From contig JAITMD010000014.1 in the NCBI GenBank assembly GCA_031277535.1, positions 42,926 to 106,925 on the forward strand: DNA of 64,000 bases, in the 5' to 3' direction. Shown here in pieces: positions 52,953 to 62,823 of this stretch. The number at the start of each line of letters is the position of its first letter. Position 1 is the stretch's first letter. The stretch comes from Flavobacteriaceae bacterium. GTDB lineage: Bacteria > Bacteroidota > Bacteroidia > Flavobacteriales > Flavobacteriaceae. Position numbers and translations under genes: made by a program. The notes beneath the pieces are model-generated. The model did not search any database, had not been told where the DNA came from, and saw only the letters and a list, made by a program, of their open reading frames with translations.

Positions 52953-53717
52953 TTAATTTAACCAGCTTTTCAATTCGGATATTTGTGATTTACTGACTAA
53001 AATCGGCATCTCATCATCAATAGCAACTGATAAAGTAAGTTCAATTTTTTGACTATTGTGCTTGATGATATTCTCTACTGCATTTCGATTAATAATAATC
53101 TTTCTATTAACCTTAAAAAAACTACTTGCATCTAATTTTGTAATGATATCCTTAATGGTATCGTCATAGATGTACCTTTCATTTTTATAGGTATGTATAA
53201 ATAAGTGCTTGCCTGAAGCAAAGAAATAGGCAATATCTGCCAGTTCTAATGATTTAAGTTTATAACCATCATGAACTAAAAAACGATCCTTTAATTCGCT
53301 TTTTTTGTCATTTTCTATATGAGTAAGTTTAGATAGTGTCTCTTGATTATTGTTTAGCTGTTTTGTAATGTTTTTATACTTTAATAAAGCATCTGTAAGA
53401 TCGTCACTTGTAAAAGGTTTAAGTATGTAGTCAATGGTAAATTGTTTGAATACTTGTATGGCATATGAATCGTAGGCTGTTGTAAAAATAATAGGACTAT
53501 TTACTTGTACTTGCTCAAATATTTCCAAGCTTTTACCATCTCCTAAGTGAATATCCATAAATATCAGATCCACTTGATTTTGAAACAAAAAGGAGGTAGC
53601 CTCTTTGACTGAGCTTAAAATAACAATAGTTGATACAACAAGTATGTCTTGTTGTAGAAGTAATGTTTTTAAGTAGTTTGAAGCAAGGGCTTCATCTTCA
53701 ACGATAGCGATTCTCAC
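52953..53717 (-). CDS. LytTR family response regulator
   Basis: Receiver 'IVEDE', 'DLIFMDIHL', 'IIFTTAYD', 'DYILKP'; LytTR 'FFKVNRKIIIN'; GTG start; own -7 element TACTTTTG (53736-53743). Confidence 0.93.
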   Translation of the reverse strand: MRIAIVEDEALASNYLKTLLLQQDILVVSTIVILSSVKEATSFLFQNQVDLIFMDIHLGDGKSLEIFEQVQVNSPIIFTTAYDSYAIQVFKQFTIDYILKPFTSDDLTDALLKYKNITKQLNNNQETLSKLTHIENDKKSELKDRFLVHDGYKLKSLELADIAYFFASGKHLFIHTYKNERYIYDDTIKDIITKLDASSFFKVNRKIIINRNAVENIIKHNSQKIELTLSVAIDDEMPILVSKSQISELKSWLN

Positions 53718-53783
53718 GTTTAAATATATTTTTTACAAAAGTAGTTAAAATATATTTTACAATATTCGTACCAATCTGAAACG

Positions 53784-53813
53784 AAAAAAGCCATTAGATC
53801 AACTAATGGCTTT
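53784..53813 (-). terminator. Terminator after susD-like gene
   Basis: Minus strand aaagccattag-ttgat-ctaatggctttttt. Confidence 0.8.
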
Positions 53814-53835
53814 ATCTCAAAATTTAAATTGGCTA

Positions 53836-55170
53836 CTATAAATTTGGGTTGTTTTTTCTTGCTGTTATAGGGAAAGGTAAAGTATATCTTGGATCATTTT
53901 GTCTTAAGATATATTTTGTACCTGAGAAGTCATGTACTATTTCTTTTTGAGTAGTACGTCTTAGATCAAACCAACGGTGTCCTTCAAAAGCAAATTCTCT
54001 AAAACGTTCATCAAGAATAAAATTAATTGTTTCTTGTTGCGTGTAGTTTGCTATTTTTTGTTTTAATTGGTTTGCTCCAACTTCAGTGTATCTATTGTCA
54101 ATTAATTTTCCAACAGTTTCTTTTGCATCATTTATTCTGTTCAAATTAGCTAATATTTCAGCTTTGATTAAATACATGTCAGCTGTTCTAAAAGAAGCCT
54201 TAGCATTTCCTGTTGCTGTTTTATTATTTACGTAAGTATTTCCTTTTTTAATAAAGAAAACGGTGAAACGTAAATCTTGTTCTTTGTCATAAGCTGCAAG
54301 TAATTCTTTTGATACAGTAGTAGCTCCATTATCACCAGGTCTCATACTTTGCTCTAATGCTAATATAGATTCAACAGATCTGAAATCTGCTACAGAATAA
54401 GCAGTAGTACTACCTATTGATTTCTTTAAATCTTGTAATTGATTTTTTAAGGTTAATGTTTGCTCTACACTTTTTAAAGCATTTTCGTAGTCTTTTTGAT
54501 ATAGATATACTCTTGCTTCTAAAGCAGCTATTGCAGCTTTTGTATAGCGGTAGTTTTTACCAATATCATAACTACTTACTTGTAGATAACCTTTTGCATT
54601 ATCTATGTCAGAATGAATTTGAGCATATACTTCAGCCATCGTTGACTTAGCTCTTTTGTTTTCAATGTCTAATTCATTTTGAATAACAATACAAGGTTGA
54701 GTAGCAGCAGTAGCTTTGTCATACGGTTTAGCAAATAAGTTTGCTAAATCAAAATATGCCATAGCTCTTAATGCATGTGCTTCACCTAAAATTTGTTTTT
54801 TATCATTTCCTTCTTCCATTGTACTTGCACCATTATTAATCGTCTCGTTGGCATAGTAAATGACTTTGTAGAATTGATCGTATGCAAATTCTCTTGAATC
54901 TTTACTTGGGTTTGCATCTTGGTAGATGTAAACGTCTTTAAGTTCTATTGCAGCACTTTTTTCTGGATCAAGTATTAATTCATCTGTTCTGAAATTACTT
55001 AATGATTTGTGTTCTGGGTATCCTGCATAAGCAGCAGTTAATACTTTTCTGAAATCTTCTACCGTTTTTGGAATAATCTTTCCTTGTGGTTCAATATCTA
55101 AGTATTTATCACAGCTAACAGTAGTTAATGCTACAGTTAGACAGCTTAAAAATAAAATGATTCTTTTCAT
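53836..55170 (-). CDS. RagB/SusD family nutrient-binding lipoprotein
   Basis: Lipobox TVSC-DKYLDI; 'GEAHALRA..YFDL', 'FRTADMYLIKAE', 'ERFREFAFEGHRWFDLRR'. Confidence 0.93.
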   Translation of the reverse strand: MKRIILFLSCLTVALTTVSCDKYLDIEPQGKIIPKTVEDFRKVLTAAYAGYPEHKSLSNFRTDELILDPEKSAAIELKDVYIYQDANPSKDSREFAYDQFYKVIYYANETINNGASTMEEGNDKKQILGEAHALRAMAYFDLANLFAKPYDKATAATQPCIVIQNELDIENKRAKSTMAEVYAQIHSDIDNAKGYLQVSSYDIGKNYRYTKAAIAALEARVYLYQKDYENALKSVEQTLTLKNQLQDLKKSIGSTTAYSVADFRSVESILALEQSMRPGDNGATTVSKELLAAYDKEQDLRFTVFFIKKGNTYVNNKTATGNAKASFRTADMYLIKAEILANLNRINDAKETVGKLIDNRYTEVGANQLKQKIANYTQQETINFILDERFREFAFEGHRWFDLRRTTQKEIVHDFSGTKYILRQNDPRYTLPFPITARKNNPNL

Positions 55171-61173: not shown

Positions 61174-61238
61174 TACAATGTTAAGTTTAAGTTAAGTCGG
61201 TATAAACTTAGTGACCTTCTTTTTAAACCAAAAATTTT

Positions 61239-61275
61239 CGGGAGTGAGTGGATTGTAAACGGGAGTGAGTGGATT
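61239..61275 (-). promoter_or_regulatory. Candidate LytTR binding site: 16-bp perfect direct repeat with 21-bp period
   Basis: CGGGAGTGAGTGGATT at 61239-61254 and 61260-61275, just upstream of a TTTG (-33) and TAAGTTTA (-7-like) on the minus strand. Confidence 0.7.
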
Positions 61276-61278
61276 ATT

Positions 61279-62823
61279 TTAACAATTAAACAAAGGAAGT
61301 ACACAAGTAAAAACTTCTCCTTCTACTACTGCTTTATAATTGGGTTTGTTGTAATAGTTATATATTGAAAATAAGTAAGTTAGTCCAAACTTTTCTCCTT
61401 CTTCTTCTCGTTTTTTAGGTTGGTAGTTATTAGTTACAATTACTTCTTCATCTGTTAGAACTACCTGTACAAGTAACGGATTTTCGTTTGTTGCTATGTT
61501 GTGTTTTAAGGCGTTTTCTATGGTAATTTGTAAAGCTAAGTAAGGTATCTTTTTTGTCTCGTTTTTTGTTCTTTTGTCAGCTATTTCAAAATGTAATTCT
61601 TTTGAAAAGCGAATCTTCTGTAAGTCAATATATTGTTTAATAAACGCTAATTCTTGTTCTAATTCTACAATGTCTTCTGTTGGAGATGTAATTAAGTAAC
61701 GATACGTTTTACTCAAGTCCAAAGTAAACTTTTGAGCCTGTGTTTTATCCATACCAATCAGCATATAAAGGGAATTTAAAGAGTTGAATAAGAAATGAGG
61801 ATTAATCTGATTTTTCAATTGTTTCAGTTGCATTAATGCTTTTTCCTTTGTTACTTTCTCTTTTTCTACAGCTAATTTTTCTTTTTCTTTATAAGTGCGT
61901 TTGTTTTCAATGGTAAAGAAATAAAAGAGCAATAAGATTACAAAGATCGTTGTTGTAAAGATCAAGTAAGTATTTCGCTTTAAAGGTGCCAAGTTCTCGT
62001 CTACATTTATCTTAGGAAAGTTGACACTGATGTATCCTTTAAAACTGGTTGTTTCAAAAGGAGCTAAAAAGCGAAATACCTCCATTTGTAAATATTCAGA
62101 AATTACCACTGGAGGATTGTTTAAAGGGGTAAACTGTAAAGTGTCTGGTGTAGATAGACTGGTTTGACTAAACACATTGGTGCCTATTAATCCTAATTCA
62201 GGATGATAAATGCAAGTACCATCTTGCGCAAAGATATAAGCATAGTTTGGTGTGGTTACATCAGTTGTGGTCAAATGACTATGAAGTGCTTCCAAATCAA
62301 AGCTAAAGCCTGTAATGATTCTTTGTTTGTTTGGTAAGCGAATGTCTTTCCACAACAACCAATAGAGCTTATTATTGATTGTAATAAAATTGTTTCGAGG
62401 TTGTGTATTTTGATGGTGAATTATTGCTTGTATTGTTGGAGAGTCTAATTGAGGATTAAACCTATTGTCAAAATTAGAATCAAGGAGTCTATCCTTTTCA
62501 TCTGTTAGAATATACCAATTGTACTTTACCATCTCACCGTGTTTGTACACTTGATTGAGTACATTGTATTTGGTGGTCAACTCCGATGTAGGAGTAGTTA
62601 GTACAAGCTGAGTTAGTGTATTGAGATGTTCGTCTATTTGTTCAAATTCTCCTTGTAAAGCTTTTGACTTGTGAAAAAAACTTTTAGAAGCAATATCTTT
62701 ATATGTGTTTTCGTAGTTGTTGTTGATAGAAATACTTAAAGACAATATAGCAATAAGGGTAATGCATAATACAGCAATACCAATCATTAAAGTTGCTCGT
62801 CTGGAATAGTGATTTCTAAACAT
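61279..62823 (-). CDS. LytS-type sensor histidine kinase with periplasmic Cache-like domain
   Basis: Two TM segments; 'YAYIFAQDGTCIYHPE'; His_kinase 'LKNQINPHFLFNSLN'; 'LALQITIENALKHN'; 'FGL'. Confidence 0.9.
   Translation of the reverse strand: MFRNHYSRRATLMIGIAVLCITLIAILSLSISINNNYENTYKDIASKSFFHKSKALQGEFEQIDEHLNTLTQLVLTTPTSELTTKYNVLNQVYKHGEMVKYNWYILTDEKDRLLDSNFDNRFNPQLDSPTIQAIIHHQNTQPRNNFITINNKLYWLLWKDIRLPNKQRIITGFSFDLEALHSHLTTTDVTTPNYAYIFAQDGTCIYHPELGLIGTNVFSQTSLSTPDTLQFTPLNNPPVVISEYLQMEVFRFLAPFETTSFKGYISVNFPKINVDENLAPLKRNTYLIFTTTIFVILLLFYFFTIENKRTYKEKEKLAVEKEKVTKEKALMQLKQLKNQINPHFLFNSLNSLYMLIGMDKTQAQKFTLDLSKTYRYLITSPTEDIVELEQELAFIKQYIDLQKIRFSKELHFEIADKRTKNETKKIPYLALQITIENALKHNIATNENPLLVQVVLTDEEVIVTNNYQPKKREEEGEKFGLTYLFSIYNYYNKPNYKAVVEGEVFTCVLPLFNC

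Follow-up and report, generated by a model that had tools for sequence, protein, structure and literature searches.

A dCache sensor kinase and a LytTR regulator as probable dedicated controllers of a ButCD-type metzincin-SusC-SusD operon in Flavobacteriales

A 64,000-nt stretch of DNA from a Flavobacteriaceae bacterium (contig JAITMD010000014.1; the whole stretch that we analysed, hereafter the window) carries neighbouring genes for a sensor histidine kinase, a metzincin protease, a SusC-type transporter, a SusD-type lipoprotein and a LytTR-family response regulator. The protease and the transporter pair have a closely described relative in Bacteroides fragilis, the ButCD locus, whose proteins ButC and ButD are represented by PDB entries 8YPT and 8YPU (Tong et al. 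2024, Nat Commun 15:8794, PMC11467351). ButCD carries in the ubiquitin-like antibacterial toxin BfUbb as a folded protein of 8.8 kDa, and this import is driven by TonB3, whose locus in B. fragilis contains two ExbB and two ExbD genes (PMC11467351). A zinc metalloprotease (ZnMc) gene lies directly upstream of the pair and the locus has no glycan-degrading genes; ZnMc is neighboured by genes for a beta-N-acetylhexosaminidase, a VWA protein and an AAA ATPase, and no kinase or LytTR regulator is described there (PMC11467351). From the gene content of the locus and from phylogeny, the authors distinguish ButCD from transporters of glycans; they propose a putative protein-nutrient system, and state its native substrate and function as unknown (PMC11467351).

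RagAB of Porphyromonas gingivalis is another SusCD-type pair and provides a working model for polypeptide uptake by SusCD systems. It is said by Madej and colleagues, in 2020, to be an oligopeptide importer of this species. The RagAB locus contains neither carbohydrate-active enzymes (CAZymes) nor a metzincin gene and is not under LytTR control, and its peptides are made extracellularly by secreted gingipains. On the regulatory side, the BtsS/BtsR (YehU/YehT) and LytS/LytR pairs combine a PF06580 kinase core with a receiver-LytTR regulator, as does the pair studied here, and in BtsS/BtsR a nutrient sensor turns on the transporter gene for its own substrate. The LytTR regulators AgrA, ComE and PlnC of Firmicutes recognise pairs of direct repeats spaced by about two helical turns, and activators such as AgrA and ComE act from sites near -45 and -66. 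Finally, the hybrid two-component systems (HTCS) of Bacteroides polysaccharide utilisation loci (PULs) follow a logic similar to the one proposed below, in that a periplasmic sensor responds to a breakdown product after its import and switches on the matching SusCD operon.

The closest protein matches of the window belong to Myroides spp. (85-90% identity), and its source is a Myroides-like flavobacterium. On the minus strand, the order of transcription is a NamZ gene, the kinase, the metzincin, SusC, SusD, a terminator and the LytTR regulator, with gaps of 16 bp between NamZ and kinase, 105 bp between kinase and protease, 27 bp between protease and SusC, and 12 bp between SusC and SusD. An earlier interpretation made without database searches (the sequence-only reading) had described five same-strand genes with the last two of these gaps; open reading frame (ORF) coordinates and searches against Pfam and NCBIfam agree with this description and back the domain calls of all five genes. 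SusC matched TIGR04056 (5e-213) and, in the PDB, 8ypu_C (965 bits, E 3.5e-289) and 8ypt_C (964 bits) over residues 118-1119, with the next SusC structure at 276 bits. SusD contains PF14322 and PF07980 as well as a lipobox, TVSC, with Cys20, and its residues 20-444 matched 8ypt_A with 259 bits (E 7e-76), with the next SusD structure at 68 bits. Judging from these matches, SusC and SusD are clear orthologues of B. fragilis ButC and ButD, which makes the metzincin-SusC-SusD operon the orthologue, in Flavobacteriales, of ZnMc-ButC-ButD.

The core is hence already known, and a claim to an altogether new type of locus is not supported, as the ZnMc-SusC-SusD core was described in 2024 (PMC11467351). 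Both loci have the order protease-SusC-SusD, a SusC with N-terminal extension (NTE), plug and barrel, and a unit without glycan-degrading genes, and the window metzincin and ZnMc can be likened by description. They differ in that the window operon lies between genes for a dCache kinase and a LytTR regulator, with a conserved operator ahead of it. RagAB (PDB 6SLI and others) is more remote: RagA is a distant paralogue of the window SusC (248 bits versus 965 for ButC), RagB is absent from the PDB matches of the window SusD at E <= 0.01, and orthology to RagAB was accordingly not found. Furthermore, RagAB peptides are cut outside the cell, whereas the window metzincin is probably periplasmic.

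The switch on this ButCD-type operon, consisting of the dCache kinase, the LytTR regulator and the operator, appears to be a new part. The operator is a perfect 16-bp direct repeat inside the kinase-protease gap, and the predicted -7 box TAAGTTTA follows 28 nt past its second copy (Table 1). In 74 non-redundant orthologous intergenic regions, the consensus of half-site 1 is AATCCAYTCACTCC, with C4, C5, T8, C9, A10, T12 and C13 invariant, and that of half-site 2 is nnnCCWYTCACTCC. A footprint alignment of 75 kinase-protease intergenic regions revealed two conserved islands in otherwise variable DNA, AATCCAYTCACTCC and then CCWYTCACTCC 21 bp on, with a TAg.TTT -7 box conserved downstream of the repeats. 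The proximal TCACTCC core lies 30-31 nt from the -7 box in 60/74 regions, and this fixed spacing would place the half-sites at roughly -45 and -66. The arrangement resembles the AgrA, ComE and PlnC operators, in which two repeats of the same orientation and similar spacing also sit immediately ahead of the promoter core, but it differs in the repeat itself (CCnYTCACTCC), in the Bacteroidota -7/-33 promoter, and in a locus without a peptide-pheromone gene.

We searched the 3.77-Mb genome for further operators, using a 15-mer (<=2 mismatches) and the pattern TCACTCC-N13-15-TCACTCC. No second copy was found in the genome and no regulon beyond the protease-SusC-SusD operon was seen, so that the operator which the sequence-only reading had called visible is the only such pair at a 21-bp period. 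The sole extra matches were one inside a 1270-aa ORF and one triple repeat at 11-bp spacing. The latter, an intergenic triple TCACTCC at G000:C3:86469-86497 (L130 3970-3998, minus strand), has the operator core in another phasing. At the other end of the operon, the terminator reported earlier between SusD and the regulator was recovered as an 11-pair hairpin with a T-run at 53813-53787, and a hairpin (dG <= -7) plus T-run occupies the SusD-regulator gap of 79/82 orthologous loci, with stem sequences that vary between clades. This conserved terminator suggests that the operon is a defined unit with the regulator gene outside it.

The five-gene unit is conserved well beyond the window. Among the best 80 of ~420 genome matches in a protease-based search, 74 loci have kinase, protease, SusC, SusD and regulator in the same order and orientation, and the other 6 are interrupted by contig ends; the unit is also intact in 7 further genomes. 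Loci with kinase and regulator belong to Myroides, some Flavobacterium, Chryseobacterium and Empedobacter. In an even sample of Flavobacteriales, a protease orthologue was detected in 26 of 401 genomes (4/105 genera), and in a class-wide sample the SusC orthologue was restricted to the genus of the window and one other genome, G705. We then scored operator presence as a core pair with <=1 mismatch in 14 positions. By this measure, all loci that have the kinase (85/85) carry the operator, with CCnYTCACTCC twice at a 21-bp period, and none of the informative orthologous loci that lack the kinase does (0/7). Given the conserved five-gene order, the co-occurrence of operator and kinase, and the fixed operator spacing, the kinase and the regulator are very probably dedicated controllers of the protease-SusC-SusD operon. 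Control of this operon by the pair, which the sequence-only reading had put forward together with a survey of synteny as a check, is supported in this respect.

Table 1 Features of the locus (positions in the window)
Feature	Position	Strand	Details
NamZ-family exo-beta-N-acetylmuramidase gene	62840..64000, continuing past window end	-	PF07075 + PF20732
Sensor histidine kinase, 514 aa	61279-62823	-	PF06580
Kinase, parts	61279-62823	-	Transmembrane helix 1 (TM1) ~10-33; periplasmic dCache ~34-285; TM2 ~286-305; PF06580 core; His343; N-box 436-442
Operator half-site 1 (promoter-distal), AATCCACTCACTCCCG	61260-61275	-	Perfect 16-mer
Operator half-site 2 (promoter-proximal), AATCCACTCACTCCCG	61239-61254	-	21-bp period from half-site 1
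Possible -33 element, TTTG	61229-61232	-	Sequence
Predicted -7 promoter box of the protease-SusC-SusD operon, TAAGTTTA	61203-61210	-	Fits Bacteroidota TAnnTTTG
Metzincin, ZnMc-type, 867 aa	58570-61173	-	DUF5118 + DUF5117 + DUF4953 'Met-zincin'
Metzincin, parts			Type-I signal peptide (cleavage near YA/K); linker 30-56; DUF5118/DUF5117 beta-rich domain; catalytic domain; all-alpha C-terminal domain
SusC/RagA-family TonB-dependent transporter, 1119 aa	55183-58542	-	TIGR04056, Plug, CarboxypepD_reg NTE
SusD-family surface lipoprotein, 444 aa	53836-55170	-	SusD-like_3 + SusD_RagB
Intrinsic terminator, 11-bp stem then TTTTTCGTTT	53787-53813	-	Hairpin + T-run between SusD and regulator
Candidate -7 box of the regulator's own promoter, TACTTTTG	53736-53743	-	Consensus inference only; 18 nt before GTG start
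LytTR-family response regulator, 254 aa	52953-53717	-	Response_reg + LytTR
Regulator, parts	52953-53717	-	Receiver (E7-D8, D55, T79/T80, K100) + LytTR DNA-binding domain

The kinase has a PF06580 core (4.9e-26 over residues 331-409), with His343 within the motif NPHFLFN and an N-box, ENALKHN, at 436, and in the PDB it matched the histidine kinase 6swj (1.8e-9). Its N-terminus is positively charged, and a periplasmic domain of ~250 amino acids lies between two transmembrane helices. The Pfam model PF02743 (dCache_1) scored 16 bits against this protein, below the cut-off of 45. However, an AlphaFold2 (AF2) model of residues 33-290 built with 52 orthologues (pLDDT 86.7, pTM 0.79) consists of a long stalk helix and two PAS-like modules, and in Foldseek its top 50 matches were all dCache ligand-binding domains from chemoreceptors and kinases (such as PctA/B/C, CtaA, Mlp24 and TlpC; E 2e-8 to 4e-6). 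A profile search of the sensor against PDB sequences returned Mlp37, Mlp24, CtaA and PctA, and some kinase orthologues carry precomputed PF02743 or PF08269 matches. The Cache domain of the sequence-only reading is confirmed in this way. Its designation as a LytS kinase applies to the PF06580 core and not to the sensor: the 5TM-Lyt domain is absent from the kinase, which has just two transmembrane helices around the dCache domain, whereas LytS and BtsS kinases combine 5TM-Lyt with GAF. The kinase is LytS-type by its PF06580 core alone and is not a LytS orthologue. In the membrane-distal dCache module, W103, W155 and G172 are invariant, and invariant Trp and Tyr residues abound in the pocket.

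The regulator shows PF00072 (3.5e-14) and PF04397 (1.1e-17) with the full set of receiver residues. Against the LytR and BtsR equivalog models it scored 92 bits (cut-off 375) and 66 bits (cut-off 246); these scores lie far under the cut-offs, and the regulator is thus no orthologue of LytR or BtsR. The target differs from those of BtsSR and LytSR as well, being an outer-membrane SusCD operon. A promoter of its own had been assigned to the regulator, and a candidate -7 box, TACTTTTG, is indeed present at the appropriate place; expression from this promoter is predicted from the consensus.

The metzincin matched PF16313 (1.5e-112), PF17148 and PF17162, is 70-87% identical across Myroides, Chryseobacterium and Empedobacter, and is weakly similar in sequence to the EcxA metzincin. 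The motif HEVGHTFGLKH at 449-459 (H449, H453, H459) and the Met-turn SIMDY at 487-491 are invariant across 43 family members, and as far as these motifs tell the enzyme is catalytically intact. A full-length AF2 model reached a pLDDT of 85.1. In a Foldseek search of this model against the PDB nothing fell below E 0.018, and the structure gave no clue to the substrate; within the literature covered, no paper naming DUF4953, DUF5117 or DUF5118 was found. Two disordered regions were observed, a Lys-rich stretch at residues 30-56 (10 Lys in 27 residues) whose character is kept across the ButCD-linked orthogroup, and a loop at residues 780-817 in the C-terminal helical domain.

Concerning its location, the protein has a type-I signal peptide, no lipobox Cys is conserved in its orthogroup, and neither Pfam nor NCBIfam matched a C-terminal domain of the type IX secretion system (T9SS). 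Under the usual sorting rules of Bacteroidota, such a signal-peptide protein without further signals stays in the periplasm. Because lipobox and T9SS sorting signals are lacking, the metzincin is probably a periplasmic protein and not a secreted foraging enzyme. We accordingly rejected a secreted or surface protease: the exported metzincin of the sequence-only reading stands with regard to signal peptide and metzincin motifs, while extracellular action is not supported. Many stand-alone DUF4953 paralogues bear lipoprotein signals, unlike the ButCD-linked orthogroup.

Together, these data suggest the following sequence of events. The periplasmic dCache domain of the kinase would detect a periplasmic or extracellular ligand, and the kinase would phosphorylate the LytTR regulator at D55. 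A regulator dimer would bind the two CCnYTCACTCC direct repeats upstream of the TAnnTTTG box and, considering its position and the precedent of the family, would activate transcription of protease, SusC and SusD. Transcription of both kinase and regulator would start outside the regulated unit, for the kinase probably on a transcript shared with NamZ and for the regulator at a promoter of its own. SusD and SusC would capture and import a peptide or small protein, which the metzincin may cleave in the periplasm, and the cleavage product or the cargo itself might act as ligand of the kinase. As the metzincin is catalytically intact and its location probably periplasmic, import followed by cleavage in the periplasm is the order of events that we favour. 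We assign the regulatory wiring and the import statement taken together a probability of roughly 70%. As to the nature of the cargo, the odds are slightly in favour of a polypeptide, and the protein-import role proposed in the sequence-only reading is consistent with the import of a protein by the orthologous ButCD (PMC11467351).

Several observations weigh against this proposal. First, orthologous operons occur without the two-component pair in small-genome Weeksellaceae, in G705 and, according to PMC11467351, in B. fragilis, which makes the pair an accessory layer. Second, deletion of ZnMc left BfUbb import unaffected, and deletion of SusC in B. fragilis caused little or no growth defect (PMC11467351). 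Third, in a sequence-level alignment of kinase orthologues, the amino-acid motif of PctA-type dCache domains (Arg, Trp, Tyr, Asp) appears not to be conserved: the column aligned with the Asp-bearing strand holds S, D or N, and the distal module has no conserved Arg. An amino-acid-sensing dCache is not favoured on these grounds, and the peptide sensing assigned to the kinase by the sequence-only reading finds no direct support. Fourth, the periplasmic placement of the metzincin is predicted from missing sorting signals, and operon structure, transcription start and direction of regulation are predicted from sequence.

An alternative explanation is that the locus scavenges cell-wall material. 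SusCD would then import peptidoglycan-derived peptides or muropeptides, the metzincin would trim stem peptides, the dCache domain would sense a wall fragment, and an amino-sugar enzyme would act in the same pathway. The NamZ gene upstream of the kinase (PF07075 NamZ_N 3e-78, PF20732 NamZ_C 5e-31) fits this view. It adjoins the kinase not only in the window (16 bp) but also in Myroides and related Flavobacterium loci and is found 2-8 kb upstream on the same strand in many Chryseobacterium loci. A beta-N-acetylhexosaminidase gene lies beside ZnMc in B. fragilis (PMC11467351), peptidase and alanine dehydrogenase genes flank the core in G705, and the invariant Trp and Tyr in the distal dCache pocket could accommodate a sugar ring no less than other ligands. 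However, NamZ is outside the operator-controlled unit, six small-genome Weeksellaceae loci without the two-component pair are flanked by unrelated housekeeping genes, and the neighbours differ in every lineage, such that each link may be due to chance. Moreover, the only demonstrated cargo of an orthologue is a folded 8.8-kDa protein (PMC11467351). We consider cell-wall scavenging unlikely.

We likewise considered that SusCD imports a glycan or glycopeptide, as in a classical PUL, with the protease trimming the peptide part or being an accessory. Characterised SusCD pairs mostly import glycans, the window SusD weakly matches glycan-type SusD structures, and NamZ, a glycoside hydrolase, adjoins the locus. 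The latter also qualifies the earlier statement that no CAZyme is present, which holds for the five genes themselves but not for the gene 16 bp upstream of the kinase. Nevertheless, between operator and terminator no CAZyme was found in any locus, and hence the locus is not a PUL in the sense of SusCD with co-regulated CAZymes; more than 90 loci have no glycoside hydrolase, lyase or sulfatase within the conserved unit. The orthologue, ButCD, was separated from glycan transporters by its authors (PMC11467351). Finally, the regulator is not of the usual PUL types, i.e., HTCS, extracytoplasmic function (ECF)/anti-sigma or SusR. The sensor, kinase and DNA-binding domains are entirely unlike those of HTCS, their functions are divided between two proteins encoded on either side of the operon, and the ligand of the window kinase, unlike HTCS ligands, is probably not a glycan. 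Import of a carbohydrate-bearing substrate is therefore quite improbable in our estimation. Even less plausible is that the bracket is a conserved neighbourhood only, with kinase and regulator controlling other genes and the repeats bound by another factor or left as a non-regulatory remnant: the genome does have many PF06580/LytTR pairs, and both genes do lie outside the operon with separate promoters, but operator and kinase co-occur throughout (85/85 versus 0/7), the genome offers the pair no second operator copy, two direct repeats with a 21-bp period have the geometry expected of a LytTR site, the order of the five genes persists with varying flanks on both sides, and the two-component-linked protease genes share a single origin.

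This single origin is apparent from a maximum-likelihood tree of the protease, in which the SusCD-linked genes form one clade (100/98) and those linked to a two-component system all group in a single subclade of it (100/100). In conflict with taxonomy, the subclade joins Flavobacteriaceae with Chryseobacterium and Empedobacter, and the other Weeksellaceae form a sister clade outside. This topology points to a five-gene cassette that arose once and then spread laterally. Identity between the two families decreases from the protease (~70%) over SusC (60%), the regulator (53%) and SusD (44%) to the kinase (38%). The core of protease, SusC and SusD without kinase, regulator and repeats was found in two small-genome Weeksellaceae genera and in G705 (L125, L131-L136). 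In G705 (47% GC, 3.4 Mb; L125 2153-14288), genes for M23 and C69 peptidases are divergent upstream of the core, and an alanine dehydrogenase gene follows directly downstream of SusD. DUF4953 paralogues with 36-45% identity occur widely; many of them are lipoproteins and most stand alone, so that the family as a whole is not a partner of SusCD, and we rejected a general link between DUF4953 and SusCD. In four loci (L093, L117-L119), a paralogous DUF4953 protease (38-44% identity) has a distant SusC-SusD pair (26-30% identity) upstream of it instead of downstream; these proteases fall outside the ButCD-linked clade of the tree.

A more far-reaching possibility is that the module forms a closed feedback loop and acts as a 'protein utilisation locus' induced by its substrate. 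SusCD would import small proteins or long peptides, the periplasmic metzincin would cut them, the dCache domain would read a specific cleavage product and the LytTR regulator would amplify expression, the whole being a single-origin cassette that moved laterally between Flavobacteriaceae and Weeksellaceae. We regard this as tentative, and on balance it is doubtful. If true, such a loop would be the counterpart, for protein, of HTCS-controlled glycan PULs, and the ligand of the kinase would reveal the native cargo of ButCD-type transporters, including the one exploited by B. fragilis toxins.

Ubiquitin-like antibacterial proteins enter gut Bacteroides through ButCD-type transporters, and the Flavobacteriales version, with its own sensor and a sharply defined operator, offers a practical handle on the native substrate of these transporters. 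With the combination of dCache, PF06580 kinase and LytTR regulator, the few regulator classes known to control SusCD operons gain another member. A literature search found no paper tying LytTR regulators to SusCD operons; a coevolution paper on Flavobacterium johnsoniae reports LytTR and SusD mutations, yet at unrelated loci. In addition, the system provides a clean LytTR circuit with a single target, in a phylum that has very many such pairs, of which hardly any have been studied.

Three further features surround the locus. Immediately downstream of the regulator, a 75-aa acidic, helical-looking ORF without a Pfam match (window 52653-52880, minus strand) is kept at the same position in Myroides and related Flavobacterium loci (53-67% identity over ~60% of its length), but not in Chryseobacterium. 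Past the window end (L004 3579-10315) lies a cluster of genes for a TonB-dependent receptor, DUF4876 and DUF6850 proteins and a di-haem cytochrome c peroxidase, which is unrelated to the operon. At window 44027-48432 on the plus strand, ~6 kb from the regulator gene, an ExbB-ExbD-ExbD-TonB cluster is followed by a gene for a PBP-like lipoprotein.

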